Of a DNA stretch of 23,588 bases, positions 1 to 23,588 are shown in pieces. The notes beneath the pieces are model-generated. The model was not told where the DNA came from, ran no database searches, and was given only the letters and a program-made list of their open reading frames with translations. A program made the position numbers and the translations under genes. The stretch comes from a virus: UHGV virus genome UHGV-1382276; one strand, 5' to 3'. The stretch's first letter is position 1, and every line of letters starts with the position of its first letter.

Positions 1-255
1 TAACGCGTCGCCGGAAGCCACGTCATAAACCGTTTTACCCCGATGATCTTCAACGAGATGCCACGATGACTCATCACTGTTGAAAACAGCCACGAAACCA
101 GCCGGAATATCTGGCGGTGCAATATAGGTACTGTTTGCAGGCAGACCTGTATGAGGCGGAATATATGCGTCACCTTCACCAATAAATTCATTAGTTCCGG
201 CCAGCAGATTATAAATTTTTATGGTCCGTGGTTGTTCACTCATTCTGAATGCCAT
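1..255 (-). CDS. tfa: Tail fiber assembly protein Tfa, N-terminal 85 codons only; the rest of the gene lies beyond the window start
   Basis: Reverse-complement translation of 255..1 gives [85 protein letters not shown], which I recognise as the N-terminus of lambda Tfa. The ATG (255..253) overlaps the stf stop (TAATG). Absent from the ORF track because it is truncated by the window edge. Confidence 0.85.
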
Positions 256-3200
256 TATGCAAGCCTCACAATATAGTTAACGGTGATGGTATGTCCATGT
301 GAACCAATCGCAACGGAGTGCGTATGAGCACCAATACCGACAGTATGTGCGTGTGCACCTGCGCTTGCAGCAGTACCCGATACAGAGTGCGTATGAGCGC
401 CTGCAGAAGAAGTGTTAACACTGTATTTAGAATAATCAGGTGATCCACTTCCCGGAGCACCACTGGAACCACCTGAAACAAATGTCATCGAATGGGTATG
501 TGCACCGGCTGAAGCAGCCGTACCGCTAACACTATGGGTATGCGCACCAGTGTTATTCGTGGATTTAGTGCCGTAATCAAACGACGATGTGGTTTTCGTC
601 CCCAAATCAGTACTGGATGCGCTGGCGCTGTGGGTATGCGATTTTATGCCGTCCTGTTCCTGAGACAATACGGCACGACCACTGGCGGGCTTGCCCTTAA
701 TCGTCCAGCCACGCATATCAGGGATCACGCCTGACGGATAAGCGGCTGCAAGTTTCGGGTAGGCAGATTTGTCAAAAGTCTGCCCCTGCATCAGGGCATA
801 ACCAGACGGAACGGTATCTGATGGCCACGGGATTGGTGCGCCGATTGGGTAGCTTTCTGGTGGAAGATTTTTCGAGGTATAAACTTCTGCCCAGTCTTCC
901 TCAAAACCATAACCGTCTCTTGAAGAACGGTAGAACAGACCACCATTTCTGTAATGCGCCTTCATCTGCAGGGTCCGGCAACTTCCGACTCCGGTATAGA
1001 AGTTAACCAGAATATAGCTGTCGCCAGAGCGGGTGACATTATAAGCGCCTGATTCGGCATTCCAGGGAACGCCACCATCCGCATCGGCATATGTATCCGT
1101 TGCCCTTCTGGCAAAAGCAGCCACATGCGCGGCGGTTAAAGTAATATCTTTGGAACCATCAAACTCAACACCAGAAACCCGTCTTGGCGTTTGCAGCTTT
1201 GTTTCTGTTAATGCATTACCGTTCAGACTTGCGGACAGTTTGGTTCCAATAACCAGTTCGCCAGTTGCGTTATCAATAGCAAACGGTCTTAATGTATTCC
1301 AGCCACCATAAACATCACCTTGATTGGTAAGCAGCAGGTAAGTTTTAGCGCCATCATTACGCCATAATGCCCCATACTCCCCACCTATCATTCGAATCTG
1401 ATTACCACCACGCGCTACAATTTCGTCTGTGGCAAAAAGTTTTTTGCACGACAAATTATCGTTAACGATTAACGAATGAGACTCATAAAAACCACGCCCA
1501 CTCTTAAAATCAAGGATAACGTCCGCCGCGATACATTCAGTCGCTGGATTTGTTGCCCCAAACTTATAGGTCGTATCATTAACAACGAGATCAGCACCAG
1601 GTGCGGATATTGACAGGCCATCTTCGATAAACGCAAAAACAGGGAAAGCAGCGCCATCAACATAGAACACAGAGCGCAAATCATCGCCCTTATTACTCAT
1701 CATTATTGAGTGGATGGCTCGTTCATTGTTTTGATATTGCCAGAACATTCCATAAGCATAACGCCCCCTGTCAGTCCAGCCACCAGGCATAACAAATCCG
1801 TTAAACTCGCAGTTATTCATCGGATCGCCTGCGGTTCGCGTTGCCGTGGTGATAATGACCCTTGATGCCAGTTCGCTTACTGAGCCAGCAGAACGCATAA
1901 CAACAACAGGGTAATATTTTCCAGATGTTGCACCTGCAGGAGCGTTAACCCGCACATAACGCATACCACGCTTATCAGCAAAGTCTGTTTTACTGACCGC
2001 GTTAATGTTGTTCAGGAAGCGTCCCTTATCGGGTATATCAGCGCCGTTCTGGTCTTTCTGCAGACGTTTCTCTGCATTGTCATAGGCTGATTTTACTGCC
2101 TTTGGCGTTGCCGCCAGCGTTTCAGACGTACTGTTGGTCGCACTGCTGAGCTGTACTATCCCCTTTTTCGTCGTGCTCGCATCCTCAAGCGCCACGGCGG
2201 ATGCAATATCCTCTGCCCGTTTTGCCGCTGTCTCGGCGCGCGTTGCCGCGGATTCCGCCGTACTTTTGCTCTGTGCTGCCGCCGTCGCACTGCCAGCTGC
2301 CTCTGTCGCCTTCGTGGATGCTGTCGTGGCGCTGCCCTTCGCTGCTGACGCCTGTCTGGTCGCCTCATCTTTTGAAGCAGACGCCGATGATGCCGATGAC
2401 GCCGCCGAACTGGCTGACGATGCGGCAGCCGTTTTTGAGGATTCTGCGCTGGTTTCCGACGCTTTCGCGTTCGTTTCGGATGTCTTCGCTGCGGAAGCAG
2501 AACTCGCTGCTGCGCTGGCCTGTTCAGTGGCTTCGCCAGCCTTCGTTGTGGCTGTTGAAGCGGATGATGCGGCGCTTTCTGCCGATTTTCCGGCGGCGGT
2601 GGCACTGGCTGAGGCCTGCCCGGCACTTGTTGACGCGGCGCTGGCAGATGATGCAGCCGCTGTTTTTGAGCCTGCCGCAGCTGAGGCGCTCTGTCCCGCT
2701 GCCGTCTCAGAAGACTTAGCGTTCGTCTCGGACGTTTTTGCCGCCTTCGCGGAATTTCCTGCCGCCGTTGCCGAGGAAGTTGCGCTACTGGCGCTCGAGG
2801 ATGCGTTCGTTTCTGATGATTTCGCTGCCTCTTTTGAGGCCGCCGCATCCCGGGCTGAGGTGGCAGCTTCTGACGCTTTCGTGGTCGCGGTGGATGCAGA
2901 AGTGGCTGCTGATTGTTGTGACGCTGCGGCATTCGTTTCTGACGTTTTCGCGGCACTGGCACTGGTAGCTGCCGCGCTTTTTGAGGACTCTGCAGCAGCA
3001 GCACTTTTCGATGCTTCAGTGGCCTTTGTTGATGCCGTTCCTGCGCTGGAAGACGCTGACTGAGCCGACGTCGCGGCCTGCCCGGCTGATGTGCTGGCTG
3101 CGCGTGCTGAGCCTGCAGCATCAGTCGCATGGGTTGCCGCCTCACGGGCTGATGTGCTGGCATCACTGGCTGACTTCTTCGCGGCTGCCGTGTTCTGTGC

Positions 3201-3560
3201 CACCACGGACGCGTTACGCGCCACCTCTTCCACCATCAGCTCAAAACGGCGCAGTGCCTCCGGACGGGCATCATCCTCCGTCATGGCACCGAGAAAATCA
3301 TTCAGCGTACCGGGTCGGGAATCTTCATACACGGTGATGGTCCCGGCATGTGACGGCGGGAATCCTTCCACCAACAGAATAACGCTGTACTGACCGTACT
3401 CAACGTCCATGCTGTAACGCCCGGCTTCATCCGGATTTTCTGAGGCCAGCGTGTTCACCACCACCGTGGTGCTGTTACGTTTTGCTTTCAGCTGGATTGT
3501 GCAGTTCTGTACCGGTTTTCCTGTGCCGTCTTTCAGTACACCTGAAATCTTTACTGCCAT
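255..3560 (-). CDS. stf: Side tail fiber protein, intact, 1101 aa; lambda-like N-terminus and C-terminus with an expanded and partly replaced middle
   Basis: ORF track 255..3566. The N-terminal ~120 aa ([35 protein letters not shown]...) and the C-terminal ~200 aa (GAPIPWPSD...KSHTHSASA...[16 protein letters not shown]) match lambda Stf as I recall it. I place the start at the ATG 3560..3558, preceded by GGGGTG, rather than the GTG at 3566 used by the ORF track. Confidence 0.9.
2202..3209 (-). repeat. Ala/Ser/Thr-rich low-complexity coding repeat forming the stf shaft, with a recurring AAKTSETNA unit
   Basis: stf residues ~120-455 are almost entirely A/S/T/K/E with quasi-periodic units. AAKTSETNA recurs three times at ~71-83 aa spacing, and the DNA shows matching near-repeats around 2461-2490, 2711-2745 and 2930-2950. 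The plus-strand ORFs in this interval are shadows of this region. Confidence 0.7.
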
Positions 3561-3571
3561 ATTCACCCCAC

Positions 3572-3598
3572 AAAAAAGCCCGCCTGAACCGGCGGGCT
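3572..3598 (-). terminator. Rho-independent terminator candidate downstream of lom
   Basis: Perfect 8-bp inverted repeat agcccgcc (3577..3584) / ggcgggct (3591..3598) with a 6-nt loop. The plus-strand A6 run at 3572..3577 gives a U-tract immediately 3' of the hairpin on the minus-strand transcript. It sits between the lom stop (3625) and the stf start (3560). Confidence 0.55.
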
Positions 3599-3624
3599 GT
3601 CATAACACTGTGTTACCTGGCTAA

Positions 3625-4224
3625 TCAGAATTTATAACCGACACCCACGATGAAACCGTCAGTGCGCCAGTCGCCACTGCCGGAGCCTTCATAAGCAATA
3701 TCAATGGCCACGGATTCGGTCGGGTTAAACTGCACGCCAGCCCCCCACGCCAGAGACGTGTTGCTGTGGCGACCGTCATCACTTCCGGTCAGCACATCGT
3801 GCGTTTTCCCCTTGTTGTCAGTTACGCGGAGATAATCCCCGAAGAAAGTCGACACACGGCTGTAAGCCACACCCGCCATCGCATACACGCTGAACCATTC
3901 ATTCACGCGCACAGACGGCCCCGCCATTACGCTGAACCAGCGGTTACGAACGGAATCTTCATGCCAGCGGGTATCGCTGTAATGGGTCAGCTGGCGATTC
4001 TTGTCTCCTGCATAGCTGAATGACGTCACCATCCCCAGTGTGTCCGTAAACTCATAACGGTATTTCACGTTAATCCCGTTCAGATCATCGCTGCCGGGAA
4101 CGTTCGTCGAGGCATGAAGATACCCCGCGCTCAGCGTGGACTGATGTTCAGACGCCCATGCAGACGCACCGGATACGACCTGCCAGACTACTGCGGACAA
4201 AATAACAGCACATAATTTACGCAT
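3625..4224 (-). CDS. lom: Lom-like outer membrane beta-barrel protein (Ail/Lom/PagC family), 199 aa
   Basis: ORF track. Has an N-terminal signal-peptide-like segment (MRKLCAVILSAVVWQVVSGASAWA), a C-terminal ...AYEGSGSGDWRTDGFIVGVGYKF ending in aromatic Phe as in lambda Lom, and GAGGT/GAGAGG 6 nt upstream of the ATG. Same position as lambda lom (between J and stf) but the N-terminal two-thirds is diverged and it is 7 aa shorter than the 206 aa I recall for lambda. Confidence 0.85.
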   Translation of the reverse strand: MRKLCAVILSAVVWQVVSGASAWASEHQSTLSAGYLHASTNVPGSDDLNGINVKYRYEFTDTLGMVTSFSYAGDKNRQLTHYSDTRWHEDSVRNRWFSVMAGPSVRVNEWFSVYAMAGVAYSRVSTFFGDYLRVTDNKGKTHDVLTGSDDGRHSNTSLAWGAGVQFNPTESVAIDIAYEGSGSGDWRTDGFIVGVGYKF

Positions 4225-4245
4225 AATTACCTCTCGCTTTTCTGC

Positions 4246-4273
4246 AATAAAAAAGGCGCCATTTCTGGCGCCC
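4246..4273 (-). terminator. Rho-independent terminator candidate downstream of J
   Basis: Inverted repeat ggcgcca (4255..4261) / tggcgcc (4266..4272) with a 4-nt loop. On the minus-strand transcript the hairpin is followed by UUUUUUAUU (plus-strand A-run 4246..4254). It lies between the J stop (4292) and the lom start (4224). Confidence 0.55.
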
Positions 4274-4291
4274 GTATCTGGGTTATAAAAT

Positions 4292-7200
4292 TCAGCTAAT
4301 CGTGATGCCTGCAGTGGCTTTCTTCATCACCACAACCAGCAGATCGCTGATACTGGTTGTTGGTGTCCAGTTATTCGCTCCTGATGAAGATACGGTGAAT
4401 GTCAGTGTCAGTGTCCCCTGTCCGGCAGGCATATCTATAACTGAGGAAAATACGCCCTGAGCATCCGTCGTGGACTGATTAAAAATCTCCTGACCATTGC
4501 GGGTCACTCTTAACCGGCAGGTTGAATACCAGTATGACTGTTGGTTATTACTGTTGAAATTCTCATGCTTACCACCGCGGAATAACACTGGAGGTATCAT
4601 GACCTGCCGGTCAAACTTCTGATCATCACTGATTCTTACCGTGATGGTGCCACTGGCATAACTGTTCGTGCGGGGGAAAGACTTGCTGACCGTTTTGACA
4701 ATATCGCCTTCAATCTGATTGGCTGACAGTTTCCCCTTAATCTGACAGTTCTCATTAATCGTGACGTTGTTGAGCGTCCCGGAGTTCGCATTCACACTGC
4801 CACTGATATCCGCATTTTTAGCAGTCAGCTTTCCGTCCGGTGTCAGGGAAAATGCCGGTGGATTTCCACCGCTGGTAATGGTGGGGGCCGTCAGGCGTTT
4901 CAGGAACACGTCGTTCATGAATATCTGATCGCCCTGACCAACAAACATCGGTTTTGTGTTGCCATTCGCAGGATTAACCATCGCAATCCTGTCCGCCGCC
5001 AGCAGCACCTGACTCTGCATGCCGTCAGGGGTGTTCTCAATACCGGCACCAATACCCGCGATATAAAGGCGTCCGTCCTGCATCTGCTGCAGCTTCACAG
5101 CCCACATGCTGTTCAGGTTATTATTTGTATCAACCTGAACCTTCTGTATCTGCTGAATTGCCGCACTCTGGTCTTCCAGTTTCTTATTGACGGTCTGCGT
5201 GATTTCATTGCTGACATCCGTAATGGACGTCCTGATTTCAGCCAGGTCAGGCGCAAGCTGACCGTTATCAATCTGCGTCCACAGCTCCTGAGCCAGATGG
5301 CTTTTCCCTATCTCGCCTTTGAAAAAATCCAGATAGCCGGATGCATCATCACTCGGCTGACCAACAGCCTCCACGAATGCCGATTTGCCAACGGTGTTCA
5401 CACTGCGGATATAAAAGTAATAATCATGGCCCGGTTTGATATTGATACTGGCGGCTATCCAGTACATCCCCGTGCCAAGATAGCGCGCGCTGGTTTCAAC
5501 CTGCCTGATATCCGCAATCCGCTTTTCCGAGAACCAGAACTCAAACTGTACCGTCGGATCATAAACCGCAAGATGCGGCGTGGCGGTTATCTGAAAATAC
5601 CCCGGTGTCAGCTCAATCTGCGACGGCGCTGCCGGTGCGGCAATCCGGAACGATACCGATGCCGGATCGCCCTGCTGCCCCCACGCATTTACTGCCCGGA
5701 CTGTCAGCCTGTAGTTCCCCAGCGCCAGTTGTGTGAAGCGGTATGTGGTTTCCGCCGTCCGGGCTGTGCTGACCAGCCGCTCACTGCCGTCATCCGCTGC
5801 CACGGTCAGGCGAAGCATAAAGCTCACCCCCTTCACCACCTTCGGCGTGTCCCAGCGGGCCAGTACCTGATATTCCCCGCTGTCTGCGGTGACTTCGGCA
5901 GTCAGGTGCTGCACCGCTGGCGGCGTGACACCATTCACCGTGCCGCTCTGGTCGCCGTCAAAGTGCGCCCCGTTATCCACGATGGCCTCTTTTTCCGGTA
6001 CATGCTGCACGGCGGTGATGGCATACATACCGTCGTCGTTCTCACGGATACTCACGCAGCGGAACAGGCGCTGGCGCAGCGTCGGCAGCTTCAGCCCCCA
6101 CACGCTGTATCCGGCAACGCCGTCAGGAACACGGCTCACTTTTACCTTCACGCCGTCGGTGACGGACTGGACCTCCACGCTGACCGGATTGCCACTTCCG
6201 TCAACCAGGCTTATCAGCGTGGTACCGGAGGATGGCAGCGTGATTTCACGGTCGAGCGTCAGCGTCCGGGTCTGGCTGTTCACCGCCAGCACGCGCCCGC
6301 CGGTGCGGATACCGGCATAGTCATCATCGCAGATTTCAATGACATCGCCCGGCACATGGCGAAGCCCTTCTGCGCCCACGCTGAAATCCACGGTCTGTGT
6401 TTCCAGCAGTTCTGTTTTAATCAGCCACAGCCCGGCGCGATGTGCCTGCCCCCGGCTGGTACAGCCAAAGGCATCCATCTTCGTGACGTTACGACCGTAA
6501 CGGGCAATGGCCTGCGTGTCCTCCACAAGCTCTGTCGCCGTCTCCCAGCCGTTATTCGGGTCAATCCAGTTCACCTCAACGGCATTATGGCGGTCCTTCA
6601 GGGCGCTGAAGCTGTAGCGGAACGGCGCGCCATCATCCGGCATCACCACATTACTGCGGTTATAGGTCCACACCTTATCTGATGGTCGGTCCTGCACGAA
6701 CGTCAGCGTCTGCCCGTTCCATACCGGCATACAGCGCATCGCCGAGCAGAAATCACTGAGCACATCCCACGCCTTGCGCTGTGTGGTCAGGTACGCATTA
6801 CAGATGATGCGCGGCTCCGTGCCGCCAAAGCCGTCCGGCACTGACTGGTCGCAGTACTGGCCGATGACATACAGCGCCCATTTATCCACATCCGCCGCAC
6901 CAAGACGTTTCCCCATGCCGTAGCGCGGATGGGTCAGCATATCCCACAGACACCAGGCCATGTTGTTGCTGTATGCCGGTTTAAACGTTCCGTCCCAGAT
7001 ACCGCTGTATTGCCGCGTCTGCGGGTTATAGTTCGACGGCACCTGCAGAATGCGCCCGCGCAGATGATAATTACGGCTCACCTGCTGGCTGCCGAACTGC
7101 TCCGAATCCACCTGCACGCCGACCAGTGCCGTGTTCGGGTAGCCCTGTTTCACATCGATGATTTCGGTGTATGACGACCAGAGCGTTTTGTTCTGCAGCT

Positions 7201-7774
7201 GGTCTGTGGTGCTGTCCGGCGTCATCCTGCGCATCCGGATATTGAACGGGCGCGGCGGCAGGTTACCCACCACCACCGAGGCCAGATACTGCGAGGTGGT
7301 TTTGCCCTTAATGGTGATGTCTTTTTCCGTCACCCAGCCACCATTACGCTGTATCTGAACCAGCAGGCGAACTTCCGACGGATTCCGGTCCCCCTTTGAG
7401 GTGGTTTCCACCAGTGCCTGCACGCCGAAGGTAAAACGCAGTCGGTCAATGTTTGCCGACGTGATGGTCCGGGTGATCGGCGTGTCGTATTTCACTTCCG
7501 TACCCAGCACCGTCTCGGAGCCGGAGGATTCAAATCCCTCCGGCGGTGTCTGCTCCTGCTCACCGGCCCGGAACACCACCGTGACGCCGGAGATATTGGT
7601 ATTCCCCTCACTGTCCAGCACTGGCGTACTGTTCAGCAGCACGCTTTTTAATCCATCCACCGGACCTTCAACCGGCCCTTCGCTGATGGCATCGATCACA
7701 CTCAGCAACTGCGTGGACTTCAGGTTGTCCTTCGCTTCGCGCGGGGTATGCCCCTTACTGCTGCCTTTACCCAT
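4292..7774 (-). CDS. J: Tail tip central fiber / host specificity protein J, 1160 aa
   Basis: ORF track. The N-terminal ~800 aa ([34 protein letters not shown]...) match lambda J. The C-terminal ~350 aa diverge from what I recall of lambda J and are 28 aa longer than lambda's 1132. Confidence 0.93.
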
Positions 7775-10179: not shown

Positions 10180-12737
10180 CGTCCACCTCCGGAGAACAGG
10201 CCACCATCACGCATCTGTGTCTGAATTTCATCACGGGCACCCTTGCGGGCCATGTCATACACCGCCTTCAGAGCAGCCGGACCTATCTGCCCGTTCGTGC
10301 CGTCGTTGTTAATCACCACATGGTTATTCTGCTCAAACGTCCCGGACGCCTGCGACCGGCTGTCTGCCATGCTGCCCGGTGTACCGACATAACCGCCGGT
10401 GGCATAGCCGCGCATCAGCCGGTAAAGATTCCCCACGCCAATCCGGCTGGTTGCCTCCTTCGTGAAGACAAACTCACCACGGTGAACAATCCCCGCTGGC
10501 TCATATTTGCCGCCGGTTCCCGTAAATCCTCCGGTTGCAAAATGGAATTTCGCCGCAGCGGCCTGAATGGCTGTACCGCCTGACGCGGATGCGCCGCCAC
10601 CAACAGCCCCGCCAATGGCGCTGCCGATACTCCCGACAATCCCCACCATTGCCTGCTTAAGCAGAATTTCTGTCATCATGGACAGCACGGAACGGGTGAA
10701 GCTGCGCCAGTTCTGCTCACTGCCGGTCAGCATCGCCGCCATATTCTGTGCAATACCATCAAAGGTCTGCGTGGCTGCACTTTTTACCTGCGACATACTG
10801 TCCGTGGCGCTCTCTTCCCACTCACTCCAGCCGGACTTCAGGCCTGCCATCCAGTTCCCGCGAAGCTGGTCTTCAGCCGCCCAGGTCTTTTTCTGCTCTG
10901 ACATGACGTTATTCAGCGCCAGCGGATTATCGCCATACTGTTCCTTCAGGCGCTGTTCCGTGGCTTCCCGTTCTGCCTGCCGGTCAGTCAGCCCCCGGCT
11001 TTTCGCATCAATGGCGGCCCATTTTGCCCGTTGCTGCTGTGCGAATTTATCCGCCTGCTGCGCCAGCGCGTTCAGGCGCTCCTGATACGTAACCTTGTCG
11101 CCAAGTGCAGCCAGCTGGCGTTTGTACTCCAGCGTCTCATCTTTATGCGCCAGCAGGGATTTCTCCTGTGCAGACAGCTGGCGACGTTGCGCCGCCTCCT
11201 CCAGTACCGCGAACTGACTCTCCGCCTTCCACAAATCCCGGCGCTGCTGGCTGATTTTCTCATTTGCTCCGGCATGCTTCTCCAGCGTCCGGAGTTCTGC
11301 CTGAAGCGTCAGCAGGGCAGCATGAGCACTGTCTTCCTGACGATCGCCCGCAGACACCTTCACGCCGGACTGTTTCGGCTTTTTCAGCGTCGCTTCATAA
11401 TCCTTTTTCGCCGCCGCCATCAGCGTGTTGTAATCCGCCTGCAGGATTTTCCCGTCTTTCAGTGCCTTGTTCAGTTCTTCCTGACGGGCGGTATATTTCT
11501 CCAGCGGCGTCTGCAGCCGTTCGTAAGCCTTCTGCGCCTCTTCGGTATATTTCAGCCGTGACGCTTCGGTATCGCTCTGCTGCTGCGCATTTTTGTCCTG
11601 TTGACTCTGCTGCTCAGCCTTCTTTCGGGCGGCTTCAAGCGCAAGACGGGCCTTTTCACGATCATCCCAGTAACGCGCCCGCGCTTCATCGTTAACAAAA
11701 TAATCATCCTTGCGCAGATTCCAGATATCGTCCGCTTTCTTAAACGCGGCCTCTGCCTTAATCAGCATCTCCTGCGCGGTATCAGGACGACCAATATCCA
11801 GCACCGCATCCCACATGGATTTGAATGCCCGTGCTGTCCTGTCTGCCCAGGTTTCCAGCGTGCCCATGTTCTCTTTCAGGCGGCGGGTCTGGTCATCAAA
11901 CCCTTTCGTCGCGGCCTCGTTCGCCGCCTGCAATGCCCCGGCTTCTTCGCCGGAACGCTGCAACTGAGCAACATACGCAATCTGCTCCGCCGTCACGTTA
12001 TGGAACTGGCGCGCCATCGCTGTCAGCCCCGACGTCGGGTCAGTGGTCAGCTTCCCGAAGGCTTCAGCGACCTTGTCCACCTCCACGCCGGATGCAGAGG
12101 AGAAACGCGCCACACTCTGGCTGATGGACGCAATCTGAGCCTCACCGCTTACCCCCGCCTTAACCAGTGCGCTGAGTGACTCGCTGGTCTGGTTAAACGT
12201 CAGCCCTGCCGCCTGCCCGGCTCTGGACAGGACCAGCATACGATCTGCCGTCAGCCCGGCCTGATTGCCGGAAAGGACCAGCGTTTTGTTGAAATCGGAC
12301 AGGGTTGAGTTGCCCTGATACCAGGCATACGCCAGCGCACCGGTCGCCACCGCCAGCGAGGTGGCCCCCACCATCGGCAGGGTGATCGCACCGGCAAGCC
12401 CCCGGAACATGGGGATCATCCCGCCGAAGGAGTCCTTCACCTGACCCCCCTGTTGCAGCAGGATCAGCCACGGACTTTGCCCGCCTGCAAGCTGCGTGGC
12501 CACGTCAGTGAACTGCGCAGGCAGCATACGCATGGCGGCTTTATACTGCCCGACGGAAATTCCCGCTTTCTGTGCAGCCAGCGCCTGCCGGTTCATCGAC
12601 TGTTCAACGACTGCCGCTGTTTTTTTCGCATCACTTTCCGTACCGGAAAAATGACGCCTGACTCTGGCCATCTGCTCGTCAAATCTGGCCGCATCCAGAC
12701 TCAAATCAACGACCAGATCGCCTACCGGTTCAGCCAT
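10176..12737 (-). CDS. H: Tail tape measure protein H, 853 aa
   Basis: ORF track. Same length as lambda gpH; long alpha-helical, Ala/Gln/Glu-rich protein; position between the G-T chaperone genes and M. Confidence 0.93.
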   Translation of the reverse strand: MAEPVGDLVVDLSLDAARFDEQMARVRRHFSGTESDAKKTAAVVEQSMNRQALAAQKAGISVGQYKAAMRMLPAQFTDVATQLAGGQSPWLILLQQGGQVKDSFGGMIPMFRGLAGAITLPMVGATSLAVATGALAYAWYQGNSTLSDFNKTLVLSGNQAGLTADRMLVLSRAGQAAGLTFNQTSESLSALVKAGVSGEAQIASISQSVARFSSASGVEVDKVAEAFGKLTTDPTSGLTAMARQFHNVTAEQIAYVAQLQRSGEEAGALQAANEAATKGFDDQTRRLKENMGTLETWADRTARAFKSMWDAVLDIGRPDTAQEMLIKAEAAFKKADDIWNLRKDDYFVNDEARARYWDDREKARLALEAARKKAEQQSQQDKNAQQQSDTEASRLKYTEEAQKAYERLQTPLEKYTARQEELNKALKDGKILQADYNTLMAAAKKDYEATLKKPKQSGVKVSAGDRQEDSAHAALLTLQAELRTLEKHAGANEKISQQRRDLWKAESQFAVLEEAAQRRQLSAQEKSLLAHKDETLEYKRQLAALGDKVTYQERLNALAQQADKFAQQQRAKWAAIDAKSRGLTDRQAEREATEQRLKEQYGDNPLALNNVMSEQKKTWAAEDQLRGNWMAGLKSGWSEWEESATDSMSQVKSAATQTFDGIAQNMAAMLTGSEQNWRSFTRSVLSMMTEILLKQAMVGIVGSIGSAIGGAVGGGASASGGTAIQAAAAKFHFATGGFTGTGGKYEPAGIVHRGEFVFTKEATSRIGVGNLYRLMRGYATGGYVGTPGSMADSRSQASGTFEQNNHVVINNDGTNGQIGPAALKAVYDMARKGARDEIQTQMRDGGLFSGGGR

Positions 12738-13164
12738 ACCGGACTCCTCCTGCGATCCCTTCTGATACTGTCATCAGCATTACGTCATCCTCCGTCATGT
12801 CCGCCACATCCGGGGAAGTAGGGATAACTTCATTCCCGTCCGGGCCAAAGCGGACACCTCCGGCAAGCCCTGCCGCTTTCTGCATCAGCACATCATCTTC
12901 AGGCTCTTCGTCAGCCTCACGCCGGTTCAGCAAACTGAAATCCAGCGGATGCATATCCGGATCGCTGAAAAACAGGCTGAGCACGGTGTACGTCAGCCCG
13001 GAAAAGTGCATATCCAGCAGAACATCATGAAAATAATGGGTACTGTAAAAGCGGTGCCAGTCGGCATACTCCGTGGATGACATCCCGGCAAGCATGGCAC
13101 GCCAGTCGGGTCGCCCCATCTCACGCGCCAGTTTCAGGGCAAAACTCAGCTCACCGTCGAACAC
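12730..13164 (-). CDS. T: T reading frame (-1 frame relative to G), expressed as the C-terminal part of the G-T fusion chaperone
   Basis: ORF track. Begins at the GTG within the slippery site; VFDGELSFALKLAREMGRPDW... matches lambda gpT; overlaps the H start by 8 nt. Confidence 0.85.
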   Translation of the reverse strand: MFDGELSFALKLAREMGRPDWRAMLAGMSSTEYADWHRFYSTHYFHDVLLDMHFSGLTYTVLSLFFSDPDMHPLDFSLLNRREADEEPEDDVLMQKAAGLAGGVRFGPDGNEVIPTSPDVADMTEDDVMLMTVSEGIAGGVRYG

Positions 13165-13568
13165 TTTCCCGCAGAAACAGGCTCTGCGGGCCCGGCGTCC
13201 TCTGTCTGTTCAGGGGCATTATTCACCACAAACTCATACATACCAGACAGCCGGTACACCACGTTTTCAGCATGAGAAATTGCCTCCGTGGGCCAGGTGG
13301 TAAGCACTTCCTGCTCAATCTGTTTAACGGCTTCATTCATGGACGGCATCTGCGTCTTCTGCGGATGGTTATGCCACAGGGACATCGCCACCAGAAACGC
13401 GCCGGTTCTGATGGCGTCTTCCACAGTAAACTTCCGGTTGCTGTCTGACTCCGCCTGTTCTGCCTGCCGTTTCATCAGGGCGAGATGCTCAATACGCTGC
13501 AGGGCTGACAGTTCAGAAAGCGTGACGGTCACACCGTTATGTTCAAATGATTCGGTTTTCAGGAACAT
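13146..13568 (-). CDS. G: Tail assembly chaperone G, 140 aa
   Basis: ORF track. Matches lambda gpG in length and sequence, ending ...PVSAGKCSTVS. Confidence 0.92.
   Translation of the reverse strand: MFLKTESFEHNGVTVTLSELSALQRIEHLALMKRQAEQAESDSNRKFTVEDAIRTGAFLVAMSLWHNHPQKTQMPSMNEAVKQIEQEVLTTWPTEAISHAENVVYRLSGMYEFVVNNAPEQTEDAGPAEPVSAGKCSTVS
13164..13170 (-). other. Programmed -1 ribosomal frameshift slippery heptamer G GGA AAG (G to G-T)
   Basis: Reverse complement of 13164..13170 (ctttccc) is GGGAAAG, positioned as G|GGA|AAG in the G frame 5 codons before the G stop. A -1 shift continues into the T frame. This is the classical lambda G-T site. Confidence 0.85.
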
Positions 13569-16074: not shown

Positions 16075-16115
16075 GGACTCCTCCACAGAGAGAAAATGGC
16101 CCCGAAGGGCCATGA

Positions 16116-17141
16116 TTACGCCAGTTGTACGGACACGAACGCATCAGGGTCAGCCAGCAGCATCAGCGGTGCTGACTGAATCATGGTGAACTCACGCGCC
16201 GGATCGCCGGTGGTCACCCAGTTTTTCGGGTAGCGGGCAGAGGCGTTAATACCTTCGCGCTGTGCGTCCGCATCCTGAATGCAGCCATAGGTGCGCAGAC
16301 CGCGTGCCTGAGTGTTCCCCAGCACCATCGTGTTGTCCGGCAGGAAGTTCTTTTTGACGTCGTTTTCCACGTACTGTCCGGAATACACGACGATCGCCGT
16401 ATCGCCATACATCCCCTTATAGGACACCGCTTCGCCCAGGTCTTTTACCGCTGTCTCCAGCTCGGAATTAGAGCCGCGACGGGTATCCAGCTTCTCCTTG
16501 ACGGCTTTGAAGGAACGGAACAGCGCCCAGCCTTTCGGATCAAACACGATGATATTCACCACGCCGCTGGCGTTCAGCGCGTAGGCTTCGATATCGTCGG
16601 TCGGGTCATACGTGGACTTGTCACGCTTGCTCCACTCCGTGCCGCCGGACTGCGTGATGTTATTCTCCTCACTGCGGCCCATATCCACCTCAACCGGATC
16701 GAAGGCTTCACCGGTCATGGTGTATTTGCCCTTGAGCACGGCAGAAACTGCCTGCATCTCTTCGACCTGAGCAATGGCCAGCTCTTCGTCACGCATGTTC
16801 TGCAGGATGATGCGACGGCGGCGGTAAGCCGGGTCCGCCAGATTCTGCGGATCTTCATCCGGCAGGCGACGCAGGGTCATCTGCGGATTCACCTCATGCT
16901 TCGGCTTGACATAACCCGGCGTAAATTCAGAGGTGGAGCCGCCACGGGAACGGATAACCTCACCGGAAACAATTGGCGAAACGTACAGCGCCATGTTTAC
17001 CAGTCCAGGAATTTGTGAGAGATAGACTTTCTCCGTGGTGAAGGGATAGCTCTCACGGAAAAAGAGACGCAGAAACAGCGGATCAAACTTAAATTTCTGC
17101 TCATTTGCCGCCAGCAGCTGGGCGGTTGTGTACATCGACAT
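16116..17141 (-). CDS. E: Major capsid protein E, 341 aa
   Basis: The ORF track ORF (16116..17168) contains MSMYTTAQLLAANEQKFKFDPLFLRLFFRESYPF..., matching lambda gpE. The start is placed at that Met, giving 341 aa. Confidence 0.93.
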   Translation of the reverse strand: MSMYTTAQLLAANEQKFKFDPLFLRLFFRESYPFTTEKVYLSQIPGLVNMALYVSPIVSGEVIRSRGGSTSEFTPGYVKPKHEVNPQMTLRRLPDEDPQNLADPAYRRRRIILQNMRDEELAIAQVEEMQAVSAVLKGKYTMTGEAFDPVEVDMGRSEENNITQSGGTEWSKRDKSTYDPTDDIEAYALNASGVVNIIVFDPKGWALFRSFKAVKEKLDTRRGSNSELETAVKDLGEAVSYKGMYGDTAIVVYSGQYVENDVKKNFLPDNTMVLGNTQARGLRTYGCIQDADAQREGINASARYPKNWVTTGDPAREFTMIQSAPLMLLADPDAFVSVQLA

Positions 17142-17196
17142 AAAAAAATCCCGTAAAAAAAGCCGCACAGGCGGCCTTTAGTGATGAAGGGTCAGG

Positions 17197-17529
17197 TTAA
17201 ACGATGCTGATTGCCGTTCCGGCAAACGCGGTCCGTTTTTTCGTCTCGTCGCTGGCAGCCTCCGGCCAGAGCACATCCTCATAACGGAACGTGCCGGACT
17301 TGTAGAACGTCAGTGTGGTGCTGGTCTGGTCAGCAGCAACTGCAAGAATGCCAACGGCAGCACCGTCGGTGGTGCCATCCCACGCAACCAGCTTACGGGT
17401 GGAGGTGTCCAGCATCAGCGGGGTCATTGCAGGCGCTTTCGCACTCAACCCGCCGGGCGCGGTTGCGGTATGAGCCGGGTCACTGTTGCCCAGCGGCTGG
17501 TAATGGGTAAAGGTTTCTTTGCTCGTCAT
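17197..17529 (-). CDS. D: Capsid decoration protein D, 110 aa
   Basis: The ORF track ORF (17197..17535) reads [14 protein letters not shown].... The second ATG (17529..17527) gives the 110-aa lambda gpD and has AGGGA 5 nt upstream. Confidence 0.9.
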
Positions 17530-17538
17530 AAACATCCC

Positions 17539-18858: not shown

Positions 18859-22539
<3,681 letters not shown>

Positions 22540-23225: not shown

Positions 23226-23262
23226 TAAACCGGAAAATTTTCATAAATAGCGAAAACCCGCG

Positions 23263-23274
23263 AGGTCGCCGCCC
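23263..23274 (-). other. cosN, the 12-nt cohesive-end sequence (GGGCGGCGACCT on the minus strand)
   Basis: Window 23263..23274 is aggtcgccgccc, the reverse complement of the lambda 5' cohesive end. It is flanked by lambda left-end sequence on the low-coordinate side and right-end sequence (cgtaacctgtcggatc...) on the high side. Confidence 0.85.
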
Positions 23275-23312: not shown

Positions 23313-23588
23313 ATAATAATTATCATCTGCATGTCACAACGTGCATCTACGCCATCAAACCACGTCAAATAATCAATTATGACGCAGGTATCGTATTAAT
23401 TGATCTGCATCAACTTAACGTAAAAACAACTTCAGACAATACAAATCAGCGACACTGAATACGGGACAACCTCATGTCAACGAAGAACAGCAATGCAAGA
23501 CTTATAGAGCAACGAATGGTTGCAACGACATAACACCACATTATTATAATTTAGGCGGAGCGATGAAAATTCGTTCCGCCACTTTCTT

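Follow-up and report, generated by a model that had tools for sequence, protein, structure and literature searches.

The window, the whole 23,588-nucleotide stretch analysed here, most probably carries a lom gene of the ordinary kind found in lambda-like prophages of E. coli, flanked by terminators that would be read through with the help of Q in lytic growth and would end transcription in the lysogen, a reading to which a probability of roughly 85% is assigned. The window extends from cos and Nu1 to tfa, and lom lies between J and stf on the same strand of a lambda-type late operon, as the positional orthologue of lambda lom. The J gene (4292..7774, minus strand), for the central tail fibre or tip attachment protein as annotated in the closest relative, ends in a C-terminal receptor-binding domain of the 'A8' type. 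The side tail fibre gene stf (255..3560, minus strand) has an N-terminus more than 90% identical to lambda stf DNA, and homology with lambda Stf (MAVKISG...) puts its ATG at 3560. The GC content of lom is 51-58%, and that of the flanks 48-63%, with no atypical base composition.

The lom coding sequence (3625..4224, minus strand) starts with ATG and encodes a 199-residue precursor of a predicted outer-membrane beta-barrel of the Ail/Lom family. Its Shine-Dalgarno sequence, GAGAGG (4230..4235, minus strand), is invariant in an alignment of 19 variants and is the same in lambda. Pfam PF06316 (Ail_Lom) aligns with the product over its whole length (positions 1-199 of 199; E 8.4e-120; 398.2 bits, with a cut-off of 23), which makes it a full-length member of the family; members of the same Pfam clan also match. 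As read from the sequence, codons 1-24 (4153..4224, minus strand) are predicted to encode a Sec signal peptide, MRKLCAVILSAVVWQVVSGASAWA, with a positive n-region (MRK), a hydrophobic core and an A-x-A motif, cleavage falling between AWA and SE, and this peptide aligns with those of lambda Lom and other alleles. The C-terminus (...GVGYKF) is of the aromatic beta-signal type of outer-membrane beta-barrels. The PF06316 match and the annotated relatives thus agree with the earlier note, made from the letters of this DNA, which had described a Lom-family ORF of 199 residues between J and stf with a signal peptide and an outer-membrane C-terminus. Lom would be exported via Sec and cleaved after A24, and BAM would insert it as an eight-stranded beta-barrel through the C-terminal ...GYKF signal. 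The solved homologues that cover the full mature length are lambda Lom in PDB 9wso (E 5e-47), OmpX (1e-19) and Ail (1e-17), and the eight-stranded fold is predicted from homology to these proteins. AlphaFold2, run on the window Lom with a 67-sequence alignment of close homologues, gave a mean pLDDT of 38.8 and a pTM of 0.29, too low for the model to be of use. Judged by its chain content, entry 9wso contains lambda Lom and the maltoporin LamB, the latter in the construct of 8xcj; a literature search found no paper on this entry.

The window Lom is homologous to Ail of Yersinia, OmpX of E. coli, and Rck and PagC of Salmonella, a virulence-associated family of eight-stranded beta-barrels, from which it differs in its much longer L2 and L3 loops and in being encoded on a phage, within a late operon. 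Serum resistance, with which the earlier note had associated lom, is documented for the relatives Rck and Ail and not for Lom. The window Lom also scores below the NCBIfam cut-offs for Rck (NF011777, 113.4 versus 258 bits) and OmpX (NF006917, 98.4 versus 176 bits).

Both flanks of lom have the anatomy of an intrinsic terminator, namely a GC-rich stem, a short loop and an immediate U-tract. The upstream hairpin, GGGCGCCA-GAAA-UGGCGCCU (4254..4273, minus strand), lies between the J stop and lom and was identified by terminator scan, folding and covariation. It has an 8-bp stem with 6 GC pairs (GGGCGCC/GGCGCC in the window allele), a loop of 4 and then the U-tract TTTTTATT (4246..4253, minus strand), which ends ~22 nt 5' of the lom ATG; the RNA fold has an energy of -15.7 kcal/mol (z = -3.08). 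The downstream hairpin, AGCCCGCC-GGUUCA-GGCGGGCU (3577..3598, minus strand), was found by terminator scan and folding between lom and stf, with an 8-bp stem that includes 7 GC pairs, a loop of 6 and then TTTTTG, its U-tract (3572..3576, minus strand) ending 11 nt before the stf ATG. When a terminator is defined strictly, as an 8-bp stem with at least 6 GC pairs, a loop of 3-8 and five or more T among the six bases that follow, no other site matches on either strand of the whole 23.6-kb window. Both are on the sense strand, and together they occupy the sole two intergenic gaps of this region. In 100 dinucleotide shuffles the mean number of strict matches was 0.03, and none of the shuffles had two or more. 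The terminator scan therefore bears out the hairpins and U-tracts that had been noted on both sides of lom, on its own strand. An Rfam scan of the whole window at the gathering threshold gave zero matches.

For the upstream hairpin, the comparative evidence is clean, and the stem is under selection for pairing. Pairing holds in 98.7% of cells across 19 distinct variants, compared with 35-61% in slid controls, and the TTTTTT of the U-tract is invariant. Compensatory change on both sides is seen at four of the eight stem pairs, and the observed covariation score was reached by none of 500 shuffles. The Citrobacter variant (L009) and the L012 variant likewise keep a hairpin, of different sequence. 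For the downstream hairpin, the fold z-score is only -1.9, and 64 of 92 loci share an identical 75 nt 3' of the lom stop, a near-invariance that means that covariation cannot support this hairpin on its own. Where lom has other genomic surroundings (L007 and L009), different GC-rich, terminator-like hairpins are found 3' of it. Taken over both flanks, the view that the two hairpin/U-tract elements behave like selected structures is supported.

The same hairpins might instead serve chiefly in RNA stability or processing, by shielding the 3' ends of J and lom in late mRNA, or as crossover boundaries for module exchange, a pair of roles considered very unlikely to be the principal ones. The major capsid gene has a weaker hairpin 3' of it (16113..16096) that lacks a clean T-tract, which fits stabilisers that tune stoichiometry, and the mosaic joints and conversion patch described below map to hairpin boundaries, with the hairpin loop inverted in one variant (L120). 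However, both sites flanking lom have the complete canonical anatomy, with an uninterrupted T5-6 right after the stem, for which the chance expectation is the 0.03 given above, and what the covariation shows to be selected is pairing and not sequence identity, a point against a role as recombination linkers alone. Stabiliser and terminator roles are, in addition, not mutually exclusive.

With the hairpins taken as terminators, established knowledge leads us to infer both Q read-through and termination, as it does the export and membrane insertion of Lom. In lytic growth, Q-modified RNA polymerase from pR' would pass both terminators, and Lom and the downstream tail-fibre genes would be made; complexes modified by Q run past terminators of the late operon (PMC10325885). 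In a lysogen, where there is no Q, the upstream terminator would halt stray transcripts from the tail genes, and the downstream terminator would end any lom transcript ahead of stf. That the hairpins flanking lom are the only canonical terminators in the 23-kb late operon supports the idea that they shield lom and stf against transcription that does not depend on Q. The low level of lom expression documented for lysogens of lambda and phi24B would start from a promoter that is not evident in the sequence.

Expression of lom in lysogens, and strong expression late in infection, is attributed to Liu et al. 2013 as cited in PMC9836094 and bioRxiv 10.1101/2025.02.28.640651, and lom of phi24B is expressed irrespective of induction (PMC3342100). 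In one microarray study of a lambda lysogen, lom was undetected, and the authors describe the lom promoter as little known (PMC2147009). A standard promoter scan of 3000..5000 returned no promoter-like sites, and a relaxed sigma-70-like scan (at least 8 of 12 matches) of the 400 nt upstream of lom gave no candidate in the window. When the relaxed scan was applied to nine representative loci, no site kept its position from one J type to another; a weak match at about -356, inside J, is shared only by lambda and L009, the Citrobacter locus. The lom promoter may be non-consensus or dependent on an activator. An estimate of only ~20 bp between the upstream terminator and the lom ATG had been given earlier, and the ~22 nt found here agree with it; a promoter would not fit into this space.

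Between the J stop and the hairpin lies a conserved motif, TTATAACCC (4280..4288, minus strand), that is nearly invariant in the window lom type and missing from lambda. A search for repeats or further copies of it turned up nothing informative. The motif contains TTATAA, which had been put forward as a weak -10-like element; its position (4288..4283) is exact, but there is no matching -35, and it is not a convincing -10 element. If the motif were nonetheless to serve, as TTATAA(CCC) at 4288..4280, as the -10 of a weak promoter, the upstream hairpin would be a promoter-proximal attenuator, with read-through setting the lysogenic level of lom. Such an arrangement would suit the near-invariance of TTATAACCC, which is non-coding and adjoins the variable stem, the lack of room for a promoter 3' of the T-tract, and the induction-independent expression of phi24B lom. 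It is nevertheless most improbable: there is no acceptable -35 at a spacing of 16-18 nt, TATAAC lacks the conserved final T, the motif is missing in both lambda and L009 while the hairpin is present in both, and a GC stem of 8 bp with U6 directly behind it would stop most such transcripts. The conservation of TTATAACCC may also be mere shared ancestry across 9 nt.

These results bear on the description of lom as a moron, a label that implies a promoter of its own. Like the morons of Juhala and Hendrix (HK97 gene 15, for instance), lom is an accessory, non-structural gene among tail genes with its own terminator, and relatives of lom are reported to be expressed from the prophage, as morons are. 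The arrangement departs from the moron model in that a terminator stands where the model places the promoter. Thus, of the earlier description, the downstream terminator stands, whereas a promoter of its own was not found and the GC content is not atypical. Given that the lom promoter cannot be predicted from sequence, the textbook label of lom as a moron derives from expression data alone.

The lom gene of lambda (NP_040601; lambda 18965..19585) belongs to the same family and occupies the same position between J and stf, and it too has a hairpin and T-tract upstream (18920..18935) and downstream (19612..19633). The upstream hairpin of lambda is unrelated in sequence to that of the window but equal in position, whereas the downstream terminator and the stf start are near-identical in the two phages. 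The presence of both terminators at the same positions in lambda indicates that the terminator bracket belongs to the lom cassette generally. The proteins are 43% identical overall, with differing signal peptides and an L1 that is 8 residues shorter in the window Lom. When the OmpX topology is transferred to Lom, with its strand boundaries, by sequence alignment, the predicted loops L1-L3 are 21% identical to those of lambda Lom, strands b1-b6 are 60% identical, and the segment of strand b7, loop L4 and strand b8 is 93% identical. On this topology, the comparison supports the predicted extracellular loops L1-L3 as the parts most diverged from lambda Lom, in keeping with the prior suggestion that the surface-exposed loops have diversified.

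The high identity at the C-terminus has a different character. In a sliding comparison, DNA identity to lambda rises from ~50% to more than 90% at ~3710, and stays high through the terminator and ~1 kb of stf. The 3' end of lom (3625..3710, minus strand), or approximately its last 29 codons, lies in this lambda-like block, which is more than 90% identical through the terminator into stf. The conserved C-terminus therefore marks a mosaic recombination joint at ~3710, and not a retained conserved third of the protein; the block that the earlier note had singled out does exist, but covers the last ~29 residues (~15%). The divergence from lambda is of an allelic, mosaic kind. The stretch that begins with the J receptor-binding domain and runs as far as lom codon ~170 is of a lineage other than that of lambda, with lambda-like DNA from codon ~171 through stf.

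In a wider comparison, the divergence of this lom proves to be relative to the reference chosen. The gene is diverged from lambda, as had been claimed, at the 43% identity given above, but it is the majority type of E. coli prophages, and the allele of lambda is the rare one. The window lom type is found in ~4,900 of 5,426 complete E. coli genomes, and the 1.1-kb lom region recurs at 95-98% identity, its intergenic layout unchanged, in over 3,800 genomes and in 162 phage records. Phage and E. coli records name the product Ail/Lom or Lom; its relatives include those of E. coli ST12468 (WP_021562222.1, to which the mature window Lom is identical), phages 2H10 and PhiR30_1, Stx1a- and Stx2a-converting phages, and VT1-Sakai (Sp15). 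The window lom being the common, well-annotated E. coli version, and both hairpins being present in lambda, the gene is not new, and its significance is small, as a very common and recognisable prophage gene whose architecture copies that of lambda.

At the other end of lom, a shorter exchange can be traced. Compared with a 99.7%-identical prophage of E. coli ST12468, all 22 mismatches and the single indel of the window fall within 4178..4318 (minus strand), a gene-conversion patch that covers the last 9 J codons, the upstream hairpin and lom codons 1-16. From 4341 to 4176 the window is 100% identical to the type of VT1-Sakai and E. albertii, giving a patch length of 141-166 bp. The window thus joins the J end, hairpin and signal peptide of the VT1-Sakai type to a mature Lom of the ST12468 type. 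It is quite unlikely, though conceivable, that the 5' end of the window allele (the signal peptide ...AVVWQVVSGASAWA together with the GGGCGCC/GGCGCC stem) is an artefact of assembly or polishing, introduced from paralogous lom reads. The number of lom copies per E. coli genome has a median of 2 and reaches 14, the patch is about as long as one short read and is completely identical to a common paralogous type, and its junction is absent, at above 94% identity, from the 5,426 complete E. coli genomes. On the other hand, the patch boundaries are clean, the frames of J and lom are intact and the hairpin is fully paired, and short conversion tracts and intragenic chimeras, such as P0101, are common in the lom family.

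A further question concerns the role of Lom beside a J protein of a given receptor type. The C-terminal 250 residues of the window J match PDB 9wca ('A8 gpJ'), and its receptor-binding part of ~170 residues equals that of A8 gpJ save for 2 residues, both inside the patch. A8 gpJ uses OmpC (PMC11338833), so that the J receptor-binding domain beside lom is of the OmpC type in the window and of the LamB type in lambda. A second OmpC-using chimera is 1A2. It is possible, if on balance unlikely, that the main job of Lom is to mask the phage's own receptor, for superinfection exclusion or to prevent re-adsorption of progeny, and not adhesion or virulence, with loops L1-L3 retargeted from LamB to OmpC. 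The anatomy of gene and terminators would be the same as in the preferred reading, the role alone being different. Consistent with masking, over-expressed lambda Lom protects strongly against lambda-vir and not against T7 (bioRxiv 10.1101/2025.02.28.640651), entry 9wso includes lambda Lom and LamB by chain content, and the window J has the receptor-binding domain of the OmpC-using A8 type. In addition, the receptor-binding domain of J and lom codons 1-170 form one contiguous non-lambda block, and the predicted surface loops are where most of the divergence lies. Against this, Lom at the level of a lysogen fails to block lambda-vir (bioRxiv 10.1101/2025.02.28.640651), PADLOC gives no defence-family match for the window Lom, and the short conversion tract parts J from mature Lom in the window. 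The window type of Lom, with the same loop haplotypes, is also found beside three unrelated J C-terminal clusters (0, 1 and 2, in 53, 20 and 27 loci, respectively), and beside the OmpC-type J cluster 1 there are two types of Lom, in 20 and 32 loci, that are ~45% identical to each other. Masking predicts that Lom type or loop haplotype follows the J receptor-binding type, but across 148 loci Lom type does not follow J type, and loop haplotypes recur beside different J types.

For the ordinary terminator-flanked lom favoured here, an extension of the masking idea is doubtful but readily examined, namely that the lom cassette is a swappable receptor-masking module, and that the window type of Lom binds OmpC as lambda Lom appears to bind LamB. 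If so, masking would shield infected and lysogenic cells from wasteful adsorption, and, owing to the terminator-bracketed layout with conserved flanks, the module could recombine separately from J and stf. Recent work ties lambda Lom to LamB and the window allele adjoins a J that uses OmpC, which makes it a simple testable case for receptor-specific Lom types. Among phage exclusion proteins, Llp of T5 and Cor of phi80 and N15 mask the receptor FhuA. They resemble Lom in being phage-encoded outer-membrane proteins whose genes adjoin receptor-binding genes, and differ from it in being small lipoproteins, whereas Lom is a predicted beta-barrel.

The window, read on its minus strand, is a lambda-like prophage's late operon: cos and Nu1 stand at the high end, next come the genes for head and tail, and then J (4292..7774), followed by lom (3625..4224), stf (255..3560) and the beginning of tfa. 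An earlier note had placed a hairpin followed by a T-tract on either side of lom, and both were recovered on the lom strand at the positions it gave, the upstream element at 4273..4246 (GGGCGCCAGAAATGGCGCCT then TTTTTATT) and the downstream element at 3598..3571 (AGCCCGCCGGTTCAGGCGGGCT then TTTTTG). A strict definition of a terminator requires an 8-bp stem with 6 or more GC pairs, a loop of 3-8 and no fewer than 5 T among the 6 bases that follow; by this definition the two hairpins have no other match on either strand of the 23.6-kb window. Dinucleotide shuffles gave 0.03 strict matches per strand, and none of 100 shuffles had two. With a laxer scan, the same hairpins rank first and second among the sense-strand matches.

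The upstream stem is also supported by covariation. The J-lom spacers of 92 loci reduce to 25 distinct sequences, 19 of which align in register, and across these 19 variants 98.7% of the cells of the 8-bp stem are paired, with changes on both sides at four of the eight pairs (two replace G-C by A-U, one replaces C-G by U-A, and in one A-U gives way to U-A or C-G). The covariation score was reached by none of 500 shuffles, and pairing falls to 35-61% when the partner columns are slid as a control. The downstream element is too uniform for covariation to show, the 75 nt after the lom stop being the same in 64 of the 92 loci. When lom is followed by other sequence, as in L007 of E. albertii and L009 of Citrobacter, a GC-rich hairpin of another kind comes after it. 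Lambda has a hairpin and T-tract in the same place between J and lom, the stem of which (CGTCCG-GGAA-CGGGCG, then TTTTATTAT) is unrelated to that of the window; its downstream terminator is nearly identical. We conclude that both hairpins, as judged from their sequences, are very probably true intrinsic terminators; the bracket is a trait of the lom cassette generally, lambda included. The earlier observation is confirmed and its interpretation partly supported; the gene is already known and abundantly annotated, and lambda has the same kind of terminator bracket. Among the spacer variants, that of locus L120 has an inverted hairpin loop (AGAAAT to ATTTCT) on an unaltered stem, and in L002-type spacers the stem is lengthened by A/T pairs (AATAAA...TTTATT), giving a palindrome like that of a bidirectional terminator.

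As had been pointed out, there is little room for a promoter before lom, with ~22 nt separating the upstream T-tract from the ATG codon. A promoter scan of 3000..5000 gave no match, and a relaxed scan (at least 8/12, with A2 and T6 required) found none within 400 nt upstream of lom in the window, nor any position-conserved candidate across loci with different J ends. The TTATAA proposed as a -10-like element is present, as part of the almost invariant TTATAACCC, but no -35 element accompanies it, and both lambda and the Citrobacter locus lack it. The description of lom as a moron holds in that the gene has its own terminator; however, a promoter of its own could not be demonstrated in these scans, and its GC content is unremarkable rather than odd. 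Lambda lom is reported to be expressed in lysogens and strongly late in infection (Liu et al. 2013, as cited in PMC9836094 and in bioRxiv 10.1101/2025.02.28.640651), and lom of phi24B is expressed irrespective of induction (PMC3342100); a microarray study failed to detect lom in a lambda lysogen (PMC2147009). Read-through of terminators by Q-modified polymerase is a general principle (PMC10325885), and we infer that such polymerase would pass through both lom terminators during lytic growth. Without Q, the upstream terminator would stop stray transcription coming out of the tail genes, and the downstream terminator would keep lom transcripts from entering stf.

The reading frame is the 199-aa one that the earlier note described; its ATG is at 4224, with GAGAGG 5 nt upstream. 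The Pfam family Ail_Lom covers the whole product (E 8.4e-120). Among solved structures the product matches lambda Lom (E 5e-47), OmpX (1e-19) and Ail (1e-17), and it scores under the NCBIfam equivalog cut-offs of both Rck and OmpX. Its N-terminus resembles a signal peptide (MRKLCAVILSAVVWQVVSGASAWA|SE) and its C-terminal end reads GVGYKF. Most likely, Lom is exported and then inserted as an eight-stranded barrel.

The claim that this lom is diverged stands relative to lambda, to whose Lom it is 43% identical, but the allele is the common one in E. coli. At 95-98% identity, the 1.1-kb lom region occurs in 162 phage records, among them Stx1a- and Stx2a-converting phages, 2H10 and PhiR30_1. Of 5,426 complete E. 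coli genomes, ~4,900 have it, the median being two copies each, and a single protein cluster at 90% identity has 24,859 members. In a sliding comparison with lambda, DNA identity is ~50% from the receptor-binding region of J to lom codon ~170, and at ~3710 rises to >90%, which holds across the terminator and ~1 kb of stf. The C-terminal end is therefore conserved as proposed, but over the last ~29 residues rather than a third of the protein, and this conservation reflects a mosaic joint. With putative strand and loop boundaries carried over by alignment from OmpX, identity to lambda Lom is 60% in strands b1-b6, 36% in the periplasmic turns, 21% in loops L1-L3 and 93% in b7-L4-b8; on this transferred topology, the suggested diversification of the surface loops is supported. 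The AlphaFold model was unusable (pLDDT 38.8). Variation within the window's Lom type is most concentrated in three parts, the signal peptide, L1 and L2, and indels and natural deletion alleles are located in L1 and L3.

Lom itself is mosaic, and both mosaic and deletion alleles were seen (P0101, P0120 and P0038). In P0101, an L012-type N-terminus and L1 loop meet the rest of a window-type protein at the conserved GINVKYRYE block. One common kind of deletion allele lacks ~30 aa of L3 (169 aa). Another common deletion, found in many clusters (183-185 aa), removes 16 aa around strand b4, which probably breaks the barrel; it is flanked by direct repeats encoding WFSV(M/Y)A (3868..3897 and 3910..3939 in the window). 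Lambda-type lom also occurs in "genomes" of unrelated organisms (Neobacillus, Kitasatospora, Pseudomonas, Shewanella, Leeuwenhoekiella, Desulfosporosinus and others; loci L013-L025, L029, L030 and L036-L039), on contigs of ~48.5 kb or on small ones at ~1x coverage, which looks like contamination of the assemblies with phage lambda DNA.

The closest relative of the window is a prophage of E. coli ST12468 adjoining ybhB (L040), with 99.7% identity over 23.5 kb. Across 3401..4800 the two differ only by 22 mismatches and a single indel, which all fall in 4178..4318 (-), a patch spanning the last 9 codons of J, the hairpin and lom codons 1-16. The stretch 4341..4176 is 100% identical to the VT1-Sakai/E. 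albertii type, which differs heavily beyond it, giving a patch size of 141-166 bp. The patch changes both sides of the stem (C-G in the window, U-A in the relative) and replaces the signal-peptide core, but it does not alter mature Lom. Although patches of this type are common, the junction with this mature Lom was found at >94% identity in none of the 5,426 complete E. coli genomes. The patch arose either by gene conversion over a short tract or through a polishing error that drew on a paralogous lom copy.

According to a 2025 preprint, over-expression of lambda Lom gives protection from lambda-vir though not from T7, and its authors propose exclusion or prevention of readsorption (bioRxiv 10.1101/2025.02.28.640651). 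Lambda Lom (two chains; L001, 3966..4586) and the maltoporin LamB (the 8xcj construct) share PDB entry 9wso, which suggests a Lom-LamB complex; a literature search for a paper describing the entry found none. The receptor-binding domain of J in the window (4295..4810, -) is the same as that of A8 gpJ (PDB 9wca/9wcb) except for two residues, both inside the patch. Since A8 gpJ delivers DNA via OmpC and not LamB (Brodel et al. 2024, PMC11338833), the most likely target of the prophage's central fibre, on this match, is OmpC. This raised the possibility that the window's Lom type is matched to OmpC. The receptor-masking reading is tenable but not supported for this allele, as Lom type does not track J type across 148 loci. 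Window-type Lom neighbours J C-termini of three unrelated clusters (53, 20 and 27 loci), J of the OmpC-type cluster occurs with either of two types of Lom (20 and 32 loci), and identical Lom loop haplotypes are found with all three J types. With finer sub-typing, many J types map to one Lom type, a pattern explained equally well by linkage and by function.

Elsewhere in the operon, a cos region of lambda type lies 5' of Nu1 at and around ~23261..23272 (-), reading GGGCGGCGACCT then CGCGGGTTTTCGCTATTTATGAAAATTTTCCGG, and the final ~100 nt (23491..23588) are not covered by the match to the ST12468 prophage. That match falls in two pieces because stf is 15 codons shorter in the window (1101 aa, versus 1116 aa in the relative, 3255..6605); stf also contains a weak 21-nt repeat (2593..2646). 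The head decoration gene D, annotated in the relative as a pseudogene with an internal stop (20241..20573), has an intact homologue of 112 aa in the window (17197..17535). Directly 3' of the major capsid gene (16116..17168), a 7-bp GC-rich hairpin at 16096..16113 (-), ATGGCCC-TTCG-GGGCCAT then TTTCTCTC, may stabilise the mRNA or act as a partial terminator. The slippery heptamer GGGAAAG (13164..13170, -) sits where the tail chaperone ORFs G (13146..13568) and T (12730..13164) overlap, the position of the programmed -1 frameshift of lambda G/GT. Long antisense ORFs within J (5297..6682, +; 461 aa) and stf (2134..3063, +; 309 aa) probably arise from biased codon use and GC content; the annotation of lambda has a similar antisense ORF, orf206b, inside stf.
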